The notes under the pieces are model-generated. The model did no database searches. It was not told the origin of the DNA and saw only the letters and a program-made list of their open reading frames with translations. A stretch of 63,719 nucleotides of DNA, counting the filler. It is 8 parts of 8 records of this genome, joined end to end, with 100 filler letters (N's around TTAATTAATTAA, not from the genome) between each part and the next. Parts side by side here need not be neighbours in the genome. Positions count along the whole stretch, not along the records: positions 44,398 to 53,379 come from SRR31156797_23804; 7 more parts are not named here. One strand, 5' to 3'. Shown here piece by piece: positions 9,959-53,379 of the stretch. Position 1 is the stretch's first letter. Each line of letters begins with the position of its first letter. The position numbers were made by a program, and so were the translations under genes.

Positions 9959-10058
9959 NNNNNNNNNNNNNNNNNNNNNNNNNNNNNNNNNNNNNNNNNN
10001 NNTTAATTAATTAANNNNNNNNNNNNNNNNNNNNNNNNNNNNNNNNNNNNNNNNNNNN
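9959..10058. other. artificial contig spacer
   Basis: N44-TTAATTAATTAA-N44 (stops in all six frames); abrupt GC change across it. Confidence 0.99.
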
Positions 10059-10901
10059 ACCACCAGAGTGCTTGTTCATCGCGCTCTTGGAAGACATTCC
10101 GTAGAACTTCATGAACATTTCACCGTTCTTCTCGATGATTTCGCCACCAGCTTCTTCGTGACCAGCTAGCATACCGCCAAGCATTACGAAGTCTGCACCG
10201 CCACCGAATGCTTTTGCTACATCACCAGGGCAAGTACAACCACCATCTCCAATAATACGACCACCCAAGCCGTGAGCGGCATCTGCACATTCAATAATTG
10301 CTGAAAGCTGCGGGTAACCCACACCAGTCTTAACGCGAGTAGTACATACAGAACCAGGGCCGATACCGACTTTAACAATGTCTGCACCCGCTAGAATAAG
10401 CTCTTCAACCATATCACCAGTTACTACGTTACCAGCAACAATGACTTTATTTGGGAAAGCGTTACGTACTTTTTCTACGTATTCTACAAGGTGCTCTGAG
10501 TAACCATTCGCAATGTCAATACAGATGAAAACGAGATCTTCGCTCAACGCCATGACATCTTTGGTTTTTTGAAAATCGTTATCTGAAGTACCGGTTGATA
10601 CCATTGCATTGTTGAGAGTGTTGACGTCAGCCTTACTTACAAACTCGGCCCAATCAGCCACACTGTAGTGTTTATGAATTGCAGTCATTACACCGTGTTT
10701 AGCTAGCGCTTCCGCCATTTCAAAGCTACCTACAGAGTCCATGTTGGCTGCAATAACAGGAACACCAGACCATTGACGACCACTGTGCTTGAATGTAAAC
10801 TCGCGGGTTAAATTTACTTGAGAGCGGCTTTTGAGGGTAGAACGTTTCGGGCGAAACAGGACATCTTTGAAACCTAACTTAAGTTCTTGTTCGATACGCA
10901 T
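10059..10901 (-). CDS. guaC: GMP reductase, 3' truncated
   Basis: [44 protein letters not shown]. Confidence 0.97.
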
Positions 10902-10990
10902 TGTGTAATTCCTTGATTAATTCACAGTTTGTGTCTCTTTTGCAGAGTGCGTAGTGAAGACGTTGGCAGACGTCACCACATTTCGGACAC

Positions 10991-11025
10991 AAAAAAACCG
11001 GAGCGTTGGCAGACGCTCCGGTTTT
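10991..11025 (-). terminator. terminator-like hairpin in the guaC leader
   Basis: Minus strand AAAACCGGAGCG-TCTGCCAA-CGCTCCGGTTTTTTT. Confidence 0.6.
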
Positions 11026-11029
11026 CAGC

Positions 11030-11057
11030 ATTATAGGCCGTGATTTTTTTCCGGCAA
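11030..11057 (-). promoter_or_regulatory. sigma70 promoter for guaC
   Basis: TTGCCG-N16-TATAAT on the minus strand. Confidence 0.6.
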
Positions 11058-11465
11058 GTCTGATATTTGAATTTTTTTTATGCTACGCTGACGAAGATTT
11101 CATATCTTTAGTCTTGTCATTGGCTACTCCTTACCAGCAATCAGAACAACACTCCGTTTATCAACAAGTTAACTCCAAACGTCAATTTTCCATTGATTTA
11201 CAAACGCTGACGTAAACGTTTAACCTCAATCGCTACATGTTCATTTCGTGAACCAAGTCACTCTAATAAGAAAACCACACCCATCAAATAATGCTTATTT
11301 TTCATACAAATATTGATTGATCACAACTTTTTATTTGTGCGAATACTAAAAACATGAAGAGGTTTATATCTTGCTTATAATTGAACAGCCAAAATTTAAA
11401 AGCTAGAACGCAAACAAGAGTGTCAAAAGGCACCAAAGCCGTTCGGTTGGCAGTGGAGAATTACG

Positions 11466-44397: not shown

Positions 44398-45039
44398 ATA
44401 TTGAAAGAACATGATCTTCTTTATCAATCTGATGATGCTTATGGATTGACAACTACCGGGAAACTGATTGTAGCTGAAATGGCCCCTTTTCTTAGTACTA
44501 TTGAAACGCTGGGCTCAAGCAGTCACTATCTGGAAGATCACAATGTAGGTGCTATTCCGGAACATTTCCTGAAACGAGTTAATGAGATCAGGGGTTTTAC
44601 TCTTGTGGAACCCAGCCATGTTAATTCAATTGAGCTGAATGCGGATTATCTCACAGACTGTCTTGCATCCAGAGCAGTGTACTTTGTGTACACTTTCATG
44701 CATCCAGGATCCTTGTCTGTTCTGGATCAGCTGGTCGCTAAAGGTATAGAAGTTTCGATCATCATTTCTAAGGAACTTGCTGAAAAAATGATTGATGAAA
44801 TGTATGATGTATGTAAATATACTCTTACACTTGATAATGTTTATATCTATATTTACGAGAAAGACGTGGAAATTTCATCGCTCACAGTTTGTGATACTGG
44901 TTTTCAATTAAGATTGCTTTCTAAAAACAATGAATTCAGCAATAAGCAGATTATGTGCTTCAGTCCAGAAGGGCGTAAATGGGGCAAGGATCTTTATGAT
45001 TATCACCTGAAGGATGCAAAGTTGATGACTGATATCTAA
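44398..45039 (+). CDS. Methanosarcinales winged-helix regulator (DUF1724-like C-terminus), 5' truncated
   Basis: YGLTTTGKLI, HNVGAIPEHFLKR, WGKDLYDYH pattern. Confidence 0.75.
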   Translation: MLKEHDLLYQSDDAYGLTTTGKLIVAEMAPFLSTIETLGSSSHYLEDHNVGAIPEHFLKRVNEIRGFTLVEPSHVNSIELNADYLTDCLASRAVYFVYTFMHPGSLSVLDQLVAKGIEVSIIISKELAEKMIDEMYDVCKYTLTLDNVYIYIYEKDVEISSLTVCDTGFQLRLLSKNNEFSNKQIMCFSPEGRKWGKDLYDYHLKDAKLMTDI

Positions 45040-45545
45040 CTATTCATTTATTTTTGATCTGATGCAGGACTAATTATTTTTTGTAGCTTCACTATTTTTA
45101 AAAAATGTTTCTGTTTCAGAATTCCATATAATCTTTCTTGCTCTCTAAAAAATAGTAAAATAAAGTTAATGGCATTGGTTTTATAAATGATTTCACATTA
45201 AAATCAGTGTTTTAGAATTTAACGCCATGTTAAAATTAAAAAGGAATATGGTTATATTTCCTTCTCTCAATGATCACTTGCAATAATTCAGGAAAAACAG
45301 AAACTTTCAGAAGGAATATAGAATAGGTAGAGTTCAGTTATCCGAGTAATGTGGCAAGAAATAAATAAAGCGATTAAACCTGGAAATTTCAGGGTCAATT
45401 CGTGTTAAATTCAGGAATGTCATCGTTGTTGCTGCACCCTGAATTGGATTCTGGTGGGTTATGCTGCTGCTCTTTCGATATTTCAACTGGTATCTGTAGA
45501 ATGATTGTTTCAATCAGTTTCGGCAATGAAACATAATAGCTTGAT

Positions 45546-46106
45546 TTGGTGGTTGGATTGAGTGGAGTAGTTAATAAAATCTATAAAAAGGGGACAGAAA
45601 CACAACTTCAAAGTGTTCTCTCCAAAAGTGACATATTCGACATATTGAGGAACGATCGCAGAAGATATACACTGGAGCTGCTGAAAAAAGACGGCAGCCA
45701 GAGCCTCCGGGGTATCTCAGAAGAGATAGCCAGGATCGAATCCGGTGAAGACAATCCCGGCGGTAAGATACGCAAGAGCATCTACGTCTCCCTGCTTCAA
45801 AACCATCTTCCCAAACTGGAGGAGATGGGCCTGATAGTCTACAATCGTGAGCTGGACCAGCTGGAGCTGACCCCCCTGGCCAGCAACGTAAGCTTCTACC
45901 TGGAGACTGTGGAAGACGGGGATATTCCCTGGAGCCAGTACTACCTCGGGGTCAGCCTGCTGGCACTTTCCGGCGGTCTTGTCACAAGCTACCATCTGGT
46001 GAACTTCATAGATGACACGCAGTGGTTCTTTTTCATAAGCATGATCTTCCTACTCTCATCACTGGTCCACCAGCGCCGCCAAACAAAACTGCAAAAGCAG
46101 ATGTAA
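45546..46106 (+). CDS. membrane-anchored winged-helix protein (DUF7344-like)
   Basis: IFDILRNDRRRY, RKSIYVSLLQNHLPKLEEMGLIVYN, then PWSQYYLG and two TM segments. Confidence 0.75.
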   Translation: MVVGLSGVVNKIYKKGTETQLQSVLSKSDIFDILRNDRRRYTLELLKKDGSQSLRGISEEIARIESGEDNPGGKIRKSIYVSLLQNHLPKLEEMGLIVYNRELDQLELTPLASNVSFYLETVEDGDIPWSQYYLGVSLLALSGGLVTSYHLVNFIDDTQWFFFISMIFLLSSLVHQRRQTKLQKQM

Positions 46107-46661
46107 AGATCTGCATTCCAGTTTTTTTGTCTTTTTCTTCTTTTCTCCTATTTTCTTTCCGGTCTCTGTCGAAATCCTGAATAACTTAATCCATCCCGGA
46201 GGGTCCGGTGAAGCCGGCACGATCCAAAAAGATGAAGAAAATAATCTGTTGCCTTTAATTCTTTTTCTTGATTTCACTTTAAAGCTCAAATCCAAAATGA
46301 TGCAACTTTTAGTAAAATTGCTTCCAGCATTTGTGCCCCGACATACAGGAAAAAACAACGTTTTCCCAGAATTTCCAGCTTAGTTTATCCCAAAAAATCA
46401 CGATTTTCTCATTAAAATTGGTTAATTAATCATTAATCCTGAAAAATATTCTTTCAAATCACACCGCCCTTTGATGCTGGTAATTGTACATTACTGCCCC
46501 AAAACCCCCGTTAACCCACCAATAACTATATCCTGACAAATCTTAGGCAGTTCTGGTCATAATTTCAGATGGGTGGTTGGATATCTTCTCATCTGTTATA
46601 CCTTGCAGCATGTGCTGCACAATTGACCGACCAATTTGAAAATACAATTTAGGTGGAAAAT

Positions 46662-47192
46662 ATGATAAACAAGAAAATATTGCTAAGCCTGCTCTTTATC
46701 GGTGTAGTCACTGCAGCAGCAGGTTCCGGTACATGGGCATACTTCTCAGACATAGACGCCAGTACATCTAACACTCTCACTGCAGGAACTTTGGTTTTAA
46801 GCCTTGATGAAGTAACTGCATCAACATGGGCTTTTGATCCTGCAGTAATTGCTCCAAATGATGAAGACTCTGGATCCATTACAGTTACAAATGATGGAAG
46901 TCTTGATGGTTACCTGTTTGCAACTTTGACAGTAACGGAAACTGATGAAGATGCATTCTACCTATCTGATATGTTGACAATTACAGTATCAGATGGTACT
47001 GTTACAAATACATATGACTATCCAGCCGAAACAACAGATATGAGTTTTGGAGCGCTTGTATCTGGTGACAGCACCGAGATTACAGTGACATATACATTTG
47101 ATGCAGCTGCTGGTAATGACTATCAGGATGAATCTGCTACTTTCGATCTTGCTTTCAAACTAAATCAGCTAAATTCAGCAAGTAATACATAA
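46662..47192 (+). CDS. TasA/CalY-like protein with SipW-class signal peptide (putative major fibre subunit)
   Basis: KKILLSLL..GTWA/YFSD...SNTLTAGTL; APND..SGSITVTNDGSL; C-terminal GNDYQDESATFDLAFKLNQ. Confidence 0.85.
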   Translation: MINKKILLSLLFIGVVTAAAGSGTWAYFSDIDASTSNTLTAGTLVLSLDEVTASTWAFDPAVIAPNDEDSGSITVTNDGSLDGYLFATLTVTETDEDAFYLSDMLTITVSDGTVTNTYDYPAETTDMSFGALVSGDSTEITVTYTFDAAAGNDYQDESATFDLAFKLNQLNSASNT

Positions 47193-47202
47193 AACTGTAA
47201 GA

Positions 47203-47229
47203 AAAGAATGAGATTTAATCTCATTCTTT
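47203..47229 (+). other. perfect 12-bp intergenic stem-loop
   Basis: AAAGAATGAGAT-TTA-ATCTCATTCTTT directly before the GGAGGAGG RBS. Confidence 0.7.
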
Positions 47230-47245
47230 ACAGGAGGAGGTTAAA

Positions 47246-47998
47246 ATGAACAATAAAAAAATATTGTCCTCTGTCCTGCTTATTGCTCTGGTTACAGGGT
47301 TGATGGGGACAGGTACATATGCGTATTTTACGGATAGTGCTCAGTCCACTTCTAATGTTGTGAATACAGGAACACTAGAATTGACTCTTACCGATGGAAA
47401 TCCTGATCCAGATAGGCAGTGGTTGATGATACAGGCATCTCCAGGAACCATAGGTGGAGCTGGAGATATACGTATACATAACACAGGGTCTATTGAAGCT
47501 GATCATGTCGAAATTGTTTTCAAATTAGATGAACATGAGGATAATGATGGAATTCCATCCAATGGATATGAAGCAGGTCCAAATTCAGACACACTTCTGA
47601 CTGGAACAGGTGACATGTCCTCATATTTTGTAGTCGATTCAATGACATATCAGGTATTTGAAGAGGGTACTGCCATTCTATCAAGTGATGGTTCTTCCAT
47701 TGTATCAAGCAAAATAATCCTTGTGGGTTACTCTGCCGGGTCATACTTTTACGATCATGAATATCTTACGGACTATAATGGTAATGATTTCATAGATTTG
47801 TATGATTTGTCATGTGACGATTTTGATGGTTTTGATGATTTGGAACCACCGAAAGCAAATCCAGAGTTGTACATTGATTATTCTCAGTTGGATATGAGTA
47901 TATCTTTCTTGGATGATGGAACTCCTCAGAATGATTTCCAGGGAGATGTCATTGATATGACTGTGGAGGTAACTCTCAATCAAGACCCGAGCCAGTAA
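47246..47998 (+). CDS. second TasA/CalY-like protein with SipW-class signal peptide
   Basis: GTYA/YFTD...SNVVNTGTL; SPG..IHNTGSI; C-terminal QNDFQGDVIDMTVEVTLNQ. Confidence 0.82.
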   Translation: MNNKKILSSVLLIALVTGLMGTGTYAYFTDSAQSTSNVVNTGTLELTLTDGNPDPDRQWLMIQASPGTIGGAGDIRIHNTGSIEADHVEIVFKLDEHEDNDGIPSNGYEAGPNSDTLLTGTGDMSSYFVVDSMTYQVFEEGTAILSSDGSSIVSSKIILVGYSAGSYFYDHEYLTDYNGNDFIDLYDLSCDDFDGFDDLEPPKANPELYIDYSQLDMSISFLDDGTPQNDFQGDVIDMTVEVTLNQDPSQ

Positions 47999-48011
47999 AA
48001 TAAGCGAAAAT

Positions 48012-48035
48012 AGGATAGGTCTTACCTATCCTTTT
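48012..48035 (+). terminator. stem-loop with T tail after the second TasA-like gene
   Basis: AGGATAGGT-CTT-ACCTATCCT-TTT. Confidence 0.6.
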
Positions 48036-48054
48036 AATTTTATATTAGAGGATT

Positions 48055-48522
48055 ATGAATATTAAAAAAATTGATATTTTGTTAATCTTTTCAGTATTAA
48101 TTATTGTGTTTCCAATATTAGCACTTATGGTACCAATTGGTGAAATGCATTTTATGGCTGTATCTGGTACCAGTATGGAACCAACAATTACGGAAAAAGA
48201 CATAATTGTAATTGGACCTAAGTCTGCTGGAGAAATTAAACCAGGAGATATTATATCTTATAAATATAATCAAAATGTTATTATTACTCACAGAGTTGTA
48301 AAGAGGGTAGCAGGAGGTTTTGAAACTCAGGGAGATGCGTATTCAGAACCAGATGATTACATAGTTACTTCTGAGAATATAGTTGGTGTCATGAAATTAA
48401 AAATACCATATTTAGGTTCTCTGGTATACTTTGCACATACAACAAAAGGCATCATAATACTTGTTGTTTTGCCAGCACTATTGCTTATAATGCAAGAAAT
48501 TAAAGAGTTGATTAAATCCTGA
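48055..48522 (+). CDS. sipW: signal peptidase I, SipW/Sec11 type (S26B)
   Basis: VSGTSMEP (Ser), IITHRV (His), TQGDA..D, KIPYLG; flanking TM segments. Confidence 0.88.
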   Translation: MNIKKIDILLIFSVLIIVFPILALMVPIGEMHFMAVSGTSMEPTITEKDIIVIGPKSAGEIKPGDIISYKYNQNVIITHRVVKRVAGGFETQGDAYSEPDDYIVTSENIVGVMKLKIPYLGSLVYFAHTTKGIIILVVLPALLLIMQEIKELIKS

Positions 48523-48535
48523 TGGGGGTATCGTT

Positions 48536-49066
48536 ATGAAAACGTTCTTTAAACTTACTATTATTTGCCTCCTTATTGGGAGTTTACTCCCTTTTTCAGG
48601 TACAAATTCGTATTTTCATGATACTGAATATTCATCATCCAATGTAGTTATAGCAGGATTATGGGCAAGCCAATCTCAAATGCTCTATGTTGACACTTCA
48701 AACACTTATGTGAGTCAACATCAGGATGAATGCCGTCTGCTGTGTATAAGGCTTCAGACGATGGGTGATAGTGATCTTGTAATTGACAGTGTTCAAGTTG
48801 AGTGGGATGAAAACATGTATCCGATTACCATGCTTGAAACTGTGAAAATAGATGAGGATACATTCTTCATCGGTTCGGTAACCTCTGGAACAATGCTTGA
48901 TGATAATGATTATGTCATTTCTCCGGGAGTTGTGGAACCTTATAGAATGAGGGTATTTTTTAGTTCTGAAGTACAGGCTCCGTTTACAATTAGGTTCATA
49001 ATGGACGATGGATCAGTTAGGGAAATATTTATTCCTCTTGAAACTGCTGAAGATCAAAGTGAGTGA
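48536..49066 (+). CDS. third SipW-class signal-peptide protein (accessory/minor subunit)
   Basis: GTNS/YFHDTEYSSSNVVIAGLW; beta-rich mature region. Confidence 0.75.
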   Translation: MKTFFKLTIICLLIGSLLPFSGTNSYFHDTEYSSSNVVIAGLWASQSQMLYVDTSNTYVSQHQDECRLLCIRLQTMGDSDLVIDSVQVEWDENMYPITMLETVKIDEDTFFIGSVTSGTMLDDNDYVISPGVVEPYRMRVFFSSEVQAPFTIRFIMDDGSVREIFIPLETAEDQSE

Positions 49067-49083
49067 TTAAAGGTAGGTTTAAT

Positions 49084-50124
49084 ATGAAAAGAAAGGATCT
49101 GGTATCCGGTGTTCTGGCAGTTATTGTCATTACTTCAGGATTACATATGCTGCTTCCTTTTATAACAGGTTCATCAATGCCATTGATAGTTCTGAGTGGC
49201 AGTATGCATCCCTACATGAGAGTAGGTGATATGGTCTTAGTGGAATCAGTAGAGCCAGATGAACTCGGTCTTGGTGATGTACTTACTTTTAGCATACCGG
49301 GTGAAACTGAAGATATAATTGTAACTCATCGCATAATTTCTATCAACAACAAAGGAGATCTGACTTTCCAGACCAAAGGTGATGCAAATGAGGAGACGGA
49401 TGATTTTACCATACCTTCTGAAGATGTTATCGGCAAAGTAGTTTTTGTCATTCCGTTTGCAGGTTATCTTCCTGAAGCCACTAAAAGTTCTTCTCTCTTC
49501 TTTATTTTTGTAACATTGCCAGCTCTCCTTCTGATTATCGGAGAGCTTCGCAACATCATCAGATACAGCAACCCCGTCAAAGCCCGAAAAGACGAAAAAA
49601 TACAGAAAAAACAATCCCGGCGCATAAAATACACTACTGTTCTATCCAGAGCCACAGCAGTAGCATTGCTCTCTGTGATTATAATGCTTATACTTCTCCT
49701 TCCAAACTCCTTTGAAAATCAGGAAGGAATACTTACGGATGGATATACAATAGAAAATGCGGGATATCTTTCGTCGGTTTATGTTATAACGCCTGATAAT
49801 CCGGTGGACAGGTTGAAAATTGAACCCTGGTATGGGGTTGTGGCTGCGGGGAATGCAAGCAGTGTTGTGGTGGCGGAGGAGGGTATGCATGTGCAAGTCT
49901 CTTCTGTGCCGTATGTACTGCCTGTGCAGTGGATTATAATGCTGGCTGAAAAAGGGGTGTTTGTGCCAGCTGCTGGTGTGCTTGTGCTTTATATGGCGGG
50001 AGTTTTGTTTGTGACAGTTCCCCTGTGGTACAGGAAGTCTGTCAGGGGTGTGAAAAAGAGGAGTTTAAGGTATCGTTTTGCACGTTTTAAGCGTGATGTG
50101 CAGCGTATGAAGATAATGGGGTGA
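49084..50124 (+). CDS. second SipW-type signal peptidase with long C-terminal membrane extension
   Basis: VLSGSMHP, IVTHRII, QTKGDANEETD, VIPFAGY; about 190 extra aa with TM, soluble loop, TM and basic tail. Confidence 0.85.
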   Translation: MKRKDLVSGVLAVIVITSGLHMLLPFITGSSMPLIVLSGSMHPYMRVGDMVLVESVEPDELGLGDVLTFSIPGETEDIIVTHRIISINNKGDLTFQTKGDANEETDDFTIPSEDVIGKVVFVIPFAGYLPEATKSSSLFFIFVTLPALLLIIGELRNIIRYSNPVKARKDEKIQKKQSRRIKYTTVLSRATAVALLSVIIMLILLLPNSFENQEGILTDGYTIENAGYLSSVYVITPDNPVDRLKIEPWYGVVAAGNASSVVVAEEGMHVQVSSVPYVLPVQWIIMLAEKGVFVPAAGVLVLYMAGVLFVTVPLWYRKSVRGVKKRSLRYRFARFKRDVQRMKIMG

Positions 50125-50246
50125 ATTCCGGATTAAAATTAAAATGGTCTTGACTAAAAATTAGAACAAAAACAGCAAATTTTTATACCATGGCATGTCA
50201 CATTCTGGCGTTGGTACTTAGAACGTTTTGAAAAAAACGGGGGCAT

Positions 50247-51281
50247 TTGGTGGAAATAGAGTATCTCAAATTTAAAAACGAATTGCTTAACAGGATAGAC
50301 ACTATCAAACATATTCTGCTTATATTGATCATACTTACTGCCGTATTGGCACTTTACATTTATGTCACGCCGGAAACGTACAAAGAGGAGTATATAGCTT
50401 CTTCATGTACCCACTACGGTGAATATACCTATACAGCACCTGTGACGCTTGCAAACCCTATCTATTCAAAGGGCATAGAGCTTGAAATGGGTATGCCAGC
50501 TTATTTCTTTGCGGTATCTCCAACTGTGGATATGACATTTGACTATCATCTGGAGGCCAGTGACTCAGTCGCCGTTGACATTCAGGTAGCGAGTTATCTT
50601 GTTGCATCAAGTGGGGCGGCAGAGGAAACATTCTGGAATAAAAGTTTCCTGCTTGCCAGTTCTTCAACATCAAAAGGTGAAAATGGGAACGTAATTCACA
50701 CCTTTACTATCAATGTTCCTGAAATCCAGGGACAGATACAGAGTGTGCAGGATCAGATCGGTTATTCCCAGGGAATGGAAACAGAAGTATTAACCATTGT
50801 TTCCTATGAAGGAATACTCAATAATAGGGTGGTTGATGAAAAAGAACAGTTCAGTTTCCCCCTGACAATAACTAATTCCTATTACCAGTTCCCTGAAGAA
50901 CTTGAATTCAGCAGTAACGATGAGTTCTACATGGGAAGGAATGTAACAAAAAAAGCCGGTTTTGCGGAACTTAAAGTTCCACTTGTTATACTTATTATTC
51001 TGGTGTCTCTACTGCTTCTTACCGGTCAGGCAAAAAAGCTGGAAACAACTGATGCCGAATATATACAAAAACTGGAAATGCAGCGTGAAAACTCCAAGTT
51101 TGATGACTGGATAAGCCCGGGCCAGTTTCCGGAATCAATTGATTTCCCACAGGTCAGGGTAGATTCTCTGCAGGGTCTTGTGGATATTGCCGCAGATATG
51201 GATGCACGGGTAATCAAAGATTCTGAAAAAGAGCTTTATTTTGCTATAAAAGATGCTATTATCTATTTGTTCTCTCAGTAA
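50247..51281 (+). CDS. DUF5305-like two-TM membrane protein
   Basis: TM, YTAPVT..NPIY..G...PAYF, large extracellular domain, TM, FDDWISPG, VDSLQGLVDIAAD.RVI. Confidence 0.7.
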   Translation: MVEIEYLKFKNELLNRIDTIKHILLILIILTAVLALYIYVTPETYKEEYIASSCTHYGEYTYTAPVTLANPIYSKGIELEMGMPAYFFAVSPTVDMTFDYHLEASDSVAVDIQVASYLVASSGAAEETFWNKSFLLASSSTSKGENGNVIHTFTINVPEIQGQIQSVQDQIGYSQGMETEVLTIVSYEGILNNRVVDEKEQFSFPLTITNSYYQFPEELEFSSNDEFYMGRNVTKKAGFAELKVPLVILIILVSLLLLTGQAKKLETTDAEYIQKLEMQRENSKFDDWISPGQFPESIDFPQVRVDSLQGLVDIAADMDARVIKDSEKELYFAIKDAIIYLFSQ

Positions 51282-51382
51282 GAATCTATATGCTTATTGA
51301 GGAATGCATTGGACTTTTTGAGGAGAATTCAGGCAAACATCTACCTTTTGCAAAATATTGATTATCAAACTCAGGTAAAAGT

Positions 51383-51796
51383 ATGACCAACTACATCATC
51401 AAGGAAAAACTTCCCACAGCCGAAGCGTAAAAACACCTGCGAAAATCTGTCGCCTGGCCTTACCCCAACGACAAAGCCATAGAAAAGAGCCTAAACAACT
51501 CCAATTACTGTGTTTGCGCCTTGGAAAACAGCAAAACCATCGGGATGTCCCGTGTGATAGGAGATGACAGTTTCGTCTATTTAGTTGCAGATGTTATCGT
51601 CATCCCTGAGTATCAAAGGCAGGTCATCGGCACTATACTCATGGAAAGGACAATGGAGTATCTGAAAAAGCACGTGCAGGAATATTCGTACATCACCCTG
51701 ATGTCAGCAAAGGGTATTGAAGGCTTTTACGAGAAGTTTGGTTTCTTCAAGAGGCCTATGGGTGAGTATGAGTATGGGATGATGGTTGAACTTTAA
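51383..51796 (+). pseudogene. GNAT acetyltransferase interrupted by a nonsense codon
   Basis: ATG 51383 gives MTNYIIKEKLPTAEA, then TAA (51428-51430), then KHLRKSVAW, in frame with IGMSRVIGD, DVIVIPEYQRQVIG, FYEKFGF. Confidence 0.75.
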
Positions 51797-52093
51797 TTCT
51801 CAGATTCTATTCAGGTTCTTCCTCTACTCAGCAACTAGCCCTTTTCCTTCAGAAATCCCATTGCTTCAAATTGTGTCAATTGGTGGTTTGTGGGTATGCT
51901 TTTCAACAATCCTTCCTTCTGATAGATACTTGCCAAAGTACTATTTATTTGGTAAACAATTTACACAAAATTTATATAGTATTTTTCGGAAGAACACTTC
52001 CAATACTTATATATGCTATTAGTTATTTTTAGCCTAAAATCGCTCTATTCAGAAAACAAAAAACGGCTTTTTGCCTATTTCACAGGTGTAAAA

Positions 52094-52258
52094 ATGGAAA
52101 TTGAAGATTTTATTATTGCTAATTTTGCCATTGCTGTGCTTGTAAGCTTCTTCCTCTACACAGCAACTAATCCTCTCCTTCCAGGGCTTCACGTACTTGA
52201 AACATTTGCAATTGGTAGCATCTGCGCTTATGTTTTCAAGAGTCCTGGAATTTTCTAA
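52094..52258 (+). CDS. small two-TM hypothetical protein
   Basis: AGGTG RBS; MEIEDFIIANFAIAVLVSFF. Confidence 0.45.
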   Translation: MEIEDFIIANFAIAVLVSFFLYTATNPLLPGLHVLETFAIGSICAYVFKSPGIF

Positions 52259-52281
52259 AAATCAGATTTTGGTTTATAGCC

Positions 52282-52376
52282 CTGATATATTCAAAGGATA
52301 TGGAGGTCTTTTACGAGAAGTTCGGGTTCTTTAAGAGGTCAACGGGAGATTATGTGTATGGGATATGGTGGAGTTT
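52282..52376 (+). pseudogene. degenerate copy of the GNAT 3' end
   Basis: CTTTTACGAGAAGTTCGGGTTCTTTAAGAGG...GTATGGGAT closely matches about 51697-51793. Confidence 0.65.
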
Positions 52377-52398
52377 TCACCAGTTTATATTTTTTTAA

Positions 52399-52632
52399 TT
52401 AGCTAAAGATCTTGAGTTACTGGTAAAAGACGAAGTTCTATCAGAAGAGCGAACCCAGAAACTCATAGAGAACTATCTCTACGCTGAACAGGAACCACTA
52501 TTGGATGAGATACTAACATTAATAGAAGGACCACAGCCATCTGTCTTGAAGCGCAAAAATATAGGCGGTAGAATATTGGATAAAATAAAGGATTTTGTAG
52601 ATACTTTCATTGATGGTATGGACACAAATTGA
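52399..52632 (+). pseudogene. start-less remnant resembling the C-terminus of a type I restriction enzyme R subunit
   Basis: Manual translation LAKDLELLVKDEVLSEERTQKLIENYLYAEQEPLLDEIL..PSVLKRKNIGGRILDKIKDFVDTFIDGM; bounded upstream by TAA. Confidence 0.5.
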
Positions 52633-52683
52633 TCAATATTTATCGCGAAATTCCCGACATAAATTTTAGTTTTGCTGGTTTGC

Positions 52684-52749
52684 ATATAAATAACTGGTCA
52701 CGCTCGTGACTAGGTGTATATAAATGCCTGGTCAAACGTTTGACCAAGG
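52684..52749. repeat. two 34-bp-period units, each a TATA-like box plus palindrome
   Basis: ATATAAATaacTGGTCAcgctcgTGACTA and ATATAAATgccTGGTCAaacgttTGACCA. Confidence 0.7.
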
Positions 52750-52901
52750 GCTTTGTGCAATGGGCTGAATCTGTCATAGGATTTCTCCACGAAAATTAAG
52801 TTCAGGAAACTTGCCATACATCAATTTGTATACAGTTTTACTTTTCAAATCAAATTTTGTGGATACATAGTATTATCTCCAACTCCTCTCAATAAAAACA
52901 T

Positions 52902-53379
52902 ATGAACCCCATAATCTCCCAACTCAGAGCCGAGCTCGAACAAAACTCTGACGAAGAAGCAAAAGCCAGTTCTAACCGCTTCTTCAAAGAGCCGATCAAA
53001 TGCTATGGCATGAAAACTCCGGTTGCCAGAAAAATAGCAAAGGACTATTACAAGAAGATATCTGGTAAAAGTAAGCAGGAGATCTTTGCACTATGTGAGG
53101 AACTCCTCAGTTCAGATTACATGGAGGAAGCGTTCATAGCATTCGAATGGTCATACAACCTGAGAAAGCAGTACGAACCTGAGGACTTTGCTATTTTTGA
53201 GAGATGGGTAAGGGATTATGTCAACAACTGGGCCAAATGTGACACTCTCTGCAATCACACCATAGGTACGTTCATCGACATGTATCCTCAGTTTATTGAT
53301 TCACTCAAAAAGTGGACAGCTTCAGATAATCGCTGGTACAGGCGTGCTGCCGCTGTAACACTCATTTTAGCGGCTCGCA
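52902..53379 (+). CDS. DNA alkylation repair protein (AlkD-like HEAT repeat), 3' truncated
   Basis: RFFKE...YGMKTP, VNNWAKCD, W..SDNRWYRRAA. Confidence 0.85.

Follow-up and report, generated by a model that had tools for sequence, protein, structure and literature searches.

A TasA-type gene cluster with two signal peptidases and a DUF7344 regulator on a Methanosarcinaceae-like metagenomic contig

The closest described relatives of the locus treated here are the tapA-sipW-tasA operon of Bacillus subtilis (8AUR, 5OF1; PMC9674648), the Tafi/taf loci (Haloarcula hispanica tafA-G, Natrinema TafE; PMC11821415, PMC12337348), the AbpX loci (Pyrodictium abyssi, 9SJ2; 10.64898/2026.01.04.697558) and the AbpA bundling pili of Pyrobaculum calidifontis (7UEG; PMC9245690); all comparisons refer to parts of these papers. 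TafB, TafD and TafG have been described (PMC11821415, PMC12337348), TafD is required for TafA processing in Haloarcula (PMC11821415), and proteins with the DUF5305 domain have been proposed as peptidase accessories (10.64898/2026.01.04.697558; PMC11821415). PF12389 homologues in Methanosarcinales have been reported, with a call for their study (PMC9245690), and the TasA proteins of Methanosarcina barkeri and Archaeoglobus fulgidus have served as superfamily representatives (PMC12518558); the archaeal TasA cluster has no experimentally characterised member (10.64898/2026.01.04.697558). Here we describe a locus of seven genes on a metagenomic contig of about 9 kb, which spans positions 44398-53379 of a 63,719-nucleotide stretch of DNA (the window). 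In our judgement the locus quite probably builds a thin surface or matrix fibre of the TasA superfamily by donor-strand exchange. All seven genes, predicted to be co-oriented in a preliminary description made from the sequence alone, were found on the + strand at the predicted positions (Table 1).

The locus belongs to the TasA superfamily and would work in the way that TasA does; judged by the features that define each, it is neither a Bacillus tapA-sipW-tasA operon nor a Tafi or AbpX locus. With the Bacillus operon it shares PF12389 subunits, the SipW-class signal, the fold, a predicted N-terminal donor strand, a dedicated archaeal-type peptidase and a partner protein that has only the donor strand in common with the subunits. 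Unlike that operon, it encodes two peptidases, DUF5305 and DUF7344 helpers, and an inferred tip domain whose listed fold matches do not include TapA, and its subunit lacks the large insertion of Bacillus TasA. The equivalog models failed: NF046066 (TasA) gave 24.2 and 21.1 bits versus 450, NF046067 (SipW) gave 79.5 and 86.1 bits for the two peptidases versus 190, and TIGR04087 (TapA) gave 15.6 bits versus 80.

The features shared with the Tafi/taf loci are a TafB-like regulator, TafG (DUF5305), strand donation, a tip with major and minor subunits, and a TafD-like peptidase with four transmembrane (TM) segments and a C-terminal ectodomain, the likeness to TafD and TafB resting on taf-type loci that we fetched and not on the H. 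hispanica proteins themselves. The differences are that the subunits belong to PF12389 and not to DUF1102/TafA/TafE (PF06510), that the long peptidase falls outside the TafD-like clade, that there is an extra short peptidase, and that there is no TafF anchor. The twin-arginine (RR, Tat) motif of Tafi is lacking in the three signal peptides, as it is in the Sec-type taf-like clusters of Archaeoglobales and Thermococcales. The AbpX loci resemble the present locus in their dedicated peptidase plus DUF5305, their minor and tip subunits, their acidic subunits and a donor strand whose second residue is aromatic, with Asp at position 4; the AbpX peptidase, however, has ten TM helices, versus two and four here, and subunit similarity is weak (E 4e-4 with the profile described below). 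AbpA has donor-strand exchange in common with our locus, no dedicated peptidase in its own locus and no sequence-level match. The group to which the locus belongs is the 'Archaeal TasA-like' euryarchaeal cluster (PMC9245690; PMC12518558; 10.64898/2026.01.04.697558); the parts of these accounts consulted give distribution and models only, and the gene set, the two-peptidase layout and the operator were not found in them. A literature search covering few subscription papers and no supplements likewise found no study of the locus, its two peptidases or its operator, in agreement with the preliminary description, which knew of no characterised methanogen example. TasA homologues in Methanosarcinales, and the proposal that DUF5305 helps a peptidase, were already in print; new are the conserved three-box palindromic operator that tracks the DUF7344 regulator, and the hairpins after the subunit genes.

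Three substrates had been said to share a SipW-class cleavage signature. As first written, with D-x5-N, the signature has no match; corrected to D-x6-N it picks out these three proteins alone across all six frames of the window. The products of the first two substrate genes pass both PF12389 (36.7 bits for the inferred major subunit and 43 bits for the second; curated cut-off 22.5) and TIGR04088, the model of the SipW-cognate signal (30.6 and 32.6 bits; cut-off 19). The N-D-(Y/F)-Q...Q ends previously noted for two of the substrates are also there. The mature major subunit is predicted to start at 46740, with Tyr-Phe-Ser-Asp. A profile built from 65 homologues reached TasA (5OF1/8AUR) at E 1.2e-12 and 2.2e-12; a search of solved structures with the single sequence of the major subunit gave no match, so that TasA is reached by the family profile only. 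No relatives of the major subunit were found in viral contigs.

The fold agrees. An AlphaFold2 model of the mature major subunit (predicted local distance difference test, pLDDT, 79.6; predicted TM-score 0.73) has no secondary structure in residues 1-19, and Foldseek places the TasA fibre 8AUR first among its matches (E 1.5e-5), bearing out the jelly-roll fold that had been expected. VIA-align gave Z 9.6 against 8.1 for the next match, AbpA (7UEG), with root-mean-square deviations (rmsd) of 3.5 and 6.5 over 144 and 138 aligned residues. When three copies of the subunit were predicted together, the score was 0.32 (runs 0.42, 0.28 and 0.32), versus 0.00 for the best control; in the calibration, 21 of 30 solved pairs and none of 23 single chains came up to the mark of 0.32. 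The runs had at least 72% contact agreement and a partner pLDDT of at least 71. In the predicted trimer, residues 1-17 lie antiparallel to residues 128-143, and against residues 32-40, of the next copy, which is the geometry described for TasA (PMC9674648). The N-terminal strand donation proposed earlier is thus predicted, if at the border of the score.

Pfam calls PF12389 a metallo-endopeptidase and no polymer has been observed, and the M73-family proteins might instead be soluble secreted enzymes (a camelysin-type protease) or S-layer-associated monomers, with the peptidases serving export only. We think this very improbable. A sequence check found no HExxH motif in the M73-family subunits, and the conserved positions are those of the N-terminal and last strands, not a catalytic set; the TasA fibre form outranks the TasA monomer 5OF2 (Z 7.0) as a structural match; a donor-strand interface is predicted; and the co-conserved third substrate has only the donor strand in common with the subunits.

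The product of the third substrate gene was modelled as a beta-sandwich (pLDDT 88.7) with unstructured N-terminal residues 1-20, and fold searches returned generic beta-sandwich matches only, the best being a TRAPP subunit (Z 9.4 and rmsd 3.2 over 103 aligned residues). The same slot in related loci keeps the signal and the donor strand while the protein ranges from 160 to 1343 aa; among five larger slot proteins scanned from DUF5305 loci, four contain between 3 and 11 PKD domains and the fifth gave no Pfam match. Because its donor strand sits on a non-TasA beta-sandwich and relatives carry PKD repeats in the slot, the third substrate is probably a tip that can be exchanged and that donates the first strand, as has been proposed for TapA. 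Its beta-sandwich domain recurs, often repeated, in unrelated larger proteins, and looks to be an unnamed mobile surface module. Among P0016, P0018, P0027 and P0024 it was found two to three times in proteins with an N-terminus that we take, from its motif, to be prepilin-like, and in 18 stretches of one 3331-aa protein.

Both peptidases have the Ser/His/Asp motifs and pass TIGR02228, the archaeal signal peptidase I model (93.6 bits for the short and 109.8 for the long enzyme; cut-off 51.85), so the call of two Ser-His signal peptidases stands, as does that of a downstream DUF5305-like protein with two TM segments (PF17231 cut-off 29; Table 1). The short peptidase has two hydrophobic segments and the long one four; S40, H82, D100 and D106 of the long enzyme are invariant in 34 sequences, and its C-terminal domain matches TafD-like proteins of fetched loci (hhalign probability 96.7-97.1%). 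We made a quick tree of 88 catalytic domains over 149 columns, with support from the Shimodaira-Hasegawa-like approximate likelihood ratio test (SH-aLRT) only. It separates short (20 rows, SH-aLRT 91), long (26, 90), TafD-like (30, 96) and housekeeping (5, 99) groups, and each of the Methanosarcinales genomes G220, G227 and G145 has one further peptidase, outside the loci, in the housekeeping clade. The short and long clades each span distant genomes of the phylum, which argues that the pair is old, with moderate support for these two clades. Nine loci with an intact subunit-to-tip interval have no short peptidase and keep the same signal motif. The short peptidase thus appears dispensable in relatives, judged by gene content, while the long one appears to belong to the core. 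A division of labour suggested by gene order, with the short enzyme for the subunits and the long one for the tip, is unsupported, since those same nine loci keep the motif without the short enzyme.

For conservation, a scan of genome contigs returned one locus, and the survey then covered the order and the phylum of that genome. DUF5305 was over the cut-off in 33 of 284 Methanosarcinales genomes and in none of 14 control genomes. All 33 also have a subunit match at E 1e-9 or better, among 40 genomes with such a match, an overlap that was counted by hand and is partly circular, the profile having been built from the same loci. We fetched 35 of the 39 over-cut-off DUF5305 places, all except the L001 contig and three short ones. 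Subunits are present in 31 of these loci, the tip in 30, the long peptidase in 33, an intact short peptidase in 21 and the regulator in 24; the four-gene core (subunit, tip, long peptidase, DUF5305) is present in 29 and all six kinds of gene in 17, several of the missing genes reflecting contig ends or split loci. The expected co-conservation of the genes is therefore seen. TIGR04088 has no match in G001, where the locus is cut by a contig end. Homologous subunits are annotated 'TasA family protein' in M. barkeri, M. siciliae and M. spelaei; the locus was not detected in M. acetivorans, one of the control genomes.

In the phylum sample DUF5305 passes in 87 of 401 genomes. Among 40 such places, hand-chosen from long contigs across the score range, ten have TasA-type subunits and none of these ten has the regulator, versus 23 of the other 30. 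In spot checks, L080 and L102 had PF12389 subunits, and L112 and L105 had DUF1102 pilins (PF06510) together with DUF7344. Both kinds of locus occur together in three genomes (G387, G343 and G491). TasA-type and taf-type loci are thus two distinct systems with DUF5305 in common; the form found in Methanosarcinaceae is a locus of the TasA type combined with a regulator of the TafB type.

A different way to read the locus is as a cassette, acquired horizontally, that is silent or in decay and has no present function in this organism, given its patchiness, its absence from all 14 controls, and relatives with broken second subunits, a transposase-like insertion or a regulator-plus-operator relic. 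We hold this to be the least probable of the alternatives, for in the window the seven frames, the catalytic residues, the three operator boxes and the hairpins are all intact, and the breadth of the two peptidase clades also speaks against it.

It is less easy to say how a fibre would be attached. The subunits could polymerise and be released as a free matrix or gel, like the calcium lattice of AbpX, without forming a cell-attached pilus with a tip. This shares the polymerisation step with the donor-strand fibre and differs in attachment only. The subunits are acidic (15-17% Asp+Glu), no anchor subunit is present, and among 51 homologues 44 have the aromatic at position 2 and 31 the Asp at position 4, a pattern linked to calcium-assisted strand donation in AbpX (10.64898/2026.01.04.697558). 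The second subunit has an EF-hand-like DxNxN loop (window 47774-47812), found in 14 of 96 homologous subunits, which may possibly be a calcium site. On the other hand, 30 of 35 loci retain the variable tip slot with its PKD payloads, the core genes include two membrane helpers with ectodomains, and the subunits are far nearer TasA than AbpX, and we regard release as unlikely. The DxNxN loop was also seen in L033, L047, L051 and L104, in a subclass of second subunits.

The operator was not part of the preliminary description. Upstream of the first subunit gene, a Gibbs search of 21 regions found a motif with an information content of 22.9, versus 11.8-12.4 in shuffles, which resolves into palindromic boxes TAAY-N5-RTTA. 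The middle box is at exactly -31 in 34 of 38 anchored sites (at most one mismatch), where the best offset in 200 shuffles reached 4. The proximal box runs into a conserved element, AATAACTA, which is probably a weak B recognition element (BRE)/TATA region of the subunit promoter. Among 86 fetched loci, 52 have subunits; of these, 27 have regulator and motif, 24 neither, one the motif only and none the regulator only, and the motif is in none of the 34 loci without TasA-type subunits (two of the 86 loci overlap others, and kin share states). A search for the two-box pattern found 31 places in 25 of the 284 genomes, and none with the reversed control; 21 of the 25 have the locus, one (G275) a relic, and three matches look like chance. 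Three genomes (G265, G248, G049) with the structural locus have neither a DUF7344 match nor a two-box match, and the draft G235 has boxes and no DUF7344 match. We infer that the DUF7344 regulator binds the three boxes; that it activates the subunit promoter is a guess, made because weak TATA-like sequence follows the boxes. The regulator had been described as a membrane-anchored winged helix-turn-helix protein; the DUF7344 winged helix and two C-terminal segments (134-148 and 160-174) are there, and the segments are only moderately hydrophobic. The same family is also found in taf-type (DUF1102-pilin) loci.

Of 57 subunit genes, 15 are followed within 70 nt by a perfect stem of at least 8 bp, versus 2 of 143 other locus genes, an imperfect control, as other locus genes are often directly followed by coding sequence. 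The hairpin after the major subunit gene would be an mRNA-stabilising or partial terminator element.

Taken together, these results suggest the following mechanism. Three Sec-exported precursors would be cut by the signal peptidases of the locus just before Tyr-Phe-x-Asp, a cut site modelled on that of TasA. The freed N-terminal strand (about residues 1-17) is predicted to pair with the last beta-strand of the next subunit, so that the products of the major (46662) and minor (47246) subunit genes would be chained into a linear fibre. The 48536 product, having the donor strand without a TasA body, would stand at the chain end only, giving the first strand and displaying an exchangeable adhesive domain. 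The long peptidase and the DUF5305 protein, conserved together, would form the core membrane machine, and the short peptidase an old, dispensable helper. The DUF7344 protein would bind the three phased palindromic boxes by the weak promoter, most likely activating from the membrane, and the hairpins after the subunit genes would probably lift subunit mRNA over helper mRNA. The simplest guess for the base subunit is that it is tethered by an uncut signal peptide, or held by DUF5305 or a peptidase ectodomain. In its most specific form, which we offer tentatively and consider doubtful as a whole, the proposal is of a Methanosarcinaceae adhesion or aggregation TasA fibre with a swappable adhesin tip, in which a three-part membrane complex (short and long peptidases, DUF5305) hands the fibre to the next tethered precursor upon cleavage, under a membrane-tethered DUF7344 activator acting through the three-box operator.

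Several points weigh against the donor-strand fibre and its parts. No fibre, cleavage site or expression has been observed. The trimer score is exactly on the mark, one run of the three falls below it, the job had three copies where the calibration had two, and this borderline pass may be a memory of the existing TasA fibre structure 8AUR. The third substrate, though it has the same motif, scores 15.3 bits with TIGR04088, below the cut-off, and has no PF12389 match, so that the earlier expectation for these models holds for two substrates out of three; no TasA, TapA or Taf chain is among its listed fold matches, which does not by itself exclude homology. An anchor had been listed among the parts of the system; hydropathy shows no membrane segment at the C-terminus of any of the three substrates, hence there is no TafF-like anchor, and no anchor subunit can be assigned among them. 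The two-segment hydropathy threshold is reached by 12 of 27 regulator homologues, the first segment in the window being marginal, and the regulator and operator co-occur among kin, not in independent events. Finally, the locus is patchy and often decayed or rearranged.

The assembly principle is already known. What the locus adds is a gene set, a likely major subunit, a mature N-terminus and an operator, with which one can ask whether a TasA fibre takes part in methanogen clumping, granules or partner attachment; versions with one peptidase and with two lend themselves to a natural comparison, and DUF7344/TafB regulators gain a first candidate site. If the adhesion-fibre reading is true, it would give a genetic handle on methanogen attachment to partners, minerals and granules. 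By subunit annotation the locus is in cultured Methanosarcina, yet it is undetected in M. acetivorans, which may be why it was overlooked.

Table 1. Features of the locus, by position in the window
Feature	Position	Strand	Evidence or remark
DUF7344 winged-helix regulator, two C-terminal hydrophobic segments, TafB-like	45546-46106	+	PF24035 80.2 bits, cut-off 27.8
Distal operator box (putative)	46423-46435		89 nt upstream of proximal box; 78-80 nt in homologues (28/38 sites)
Middle operator box (putative)	46481-46493		31 nt upstream of proximal box
Proximal operator box (putative), running into conserved AATAACTA element	46512-46528	+	Single match in window, 0.03 expected
TasA/Peptidase_M73-family subunit, inferred major pilin	46662-47192	+	PF12389, TIGR04088, family profile, model, trimer
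Hairpin after major subunit gene	47203-47229	+	13-nt perfect arms; z -4.67, 0/200 shuffles
Second TasA-family subunit, inferred minor pilin, acidic insertions	47246-47998	+	PF12389, TIGR04088
Hairpin plus T-run after second subunit gene, weaker	48009-48035	+	z -1.93; 11/200 shuffles fold as well
Short two-TM archaeal/endoplasmic reticulum-type signal peptidase I (SipW-like)	48055-48522	+	TIGR02228
Third substrate, inferred tip/initiator (TapA-like role)	48536-49066	+	Structure model, relatives' slot
Long four-TM signal peptidase I, C-terminal extracellular domain, TafD-like architecture	49084-50124	+	TIGR02228, hydropathy, hhalign
DUF5305 protein, TafG homologue, two TM segments, inferred peptidase accessory subunit	50247-51281	+	PF17231 123.1 bits

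The window consists of eight unrelated contigs joined by N44-12 nt-N44 spacers (at 9959, 20177, 30459, 36487, 44298, 53380 and 58519), and genes across a spacer are not neighbours. A 23.9-kb contig of run X1, from which this DNA may possibly come, covers the cluster stretch with no differences. A FilR1-type regulator encoded in the flank shares 71% identity with a protein named from Methanolobus zinderi, by which we take the host to be a Methanolobus-like member of the Methanosarcinaceae, in line with the archaeal origin first assigned. The open reading frame (ORF) finder started the major subunit at GTG 46653, inside the ribosome-binding site, and ATG 46662 is the likely start; for the long peptidase it gave 49063, where Table 1 has 49084. 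The regulator is probably a separate transcription unit, since 555 nt with a promoter-like element part it from the first subunit gene. An exact-sequence look-up of the seven proteins in a protein cluster collection found none of them.

Some minor observations concern the relatives. A second Methanosarcinales locus type (L067, L068 and L070, from G197, G143 and G117) has TasA subunits and one short SipW-like peptidase that falls in a clade of its own, without DUF5305 or the regulator; the tip slot of L067 holds a 1650-aa DUF2341/LamG protein. Decay was seen in L032 (7754-8067), L046 (7381), L052 (8227-8364), L062 (6436-6916) and L041 (4469), its kinds being a second subunit with a frameshift, an insertion that separates operator from subunit, a fragment of the regulator, a short peptidase that is split, and an extra copy of a peptidase that is degenerate. 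L138 (G275) has at 10450-11300 an intact DUF7344 gene and boxes beside transposase-like frames, the structural genes being absent from the 17 kb fetched. Duplicated regulator-plus-operator units, rearranged gene order, and an inverted DUF5305 or long peptidase gene were seen among L034, L044, L058, L048, L051, L062 and L035. Phase variation by inversion (L035, L048, L051, L062) was considered and dropped, as only fixed rearrangements with duplicated regulators were seen, recombinases not having been searched for. L048, L051 and L062 have short tandem repeats, variable in copy number, between operator and first subunit, and a subunit in L055 (5270-5869) ends in a long Gly-Gln dipeptide repeat. 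In the window, a short element between regulator and operator (46180-46236) folds no better than shuffles and is common to other contigs of run X1; some of these have depths of 120-290 versus 43.6, and it is possibly a small dispersed repeat.

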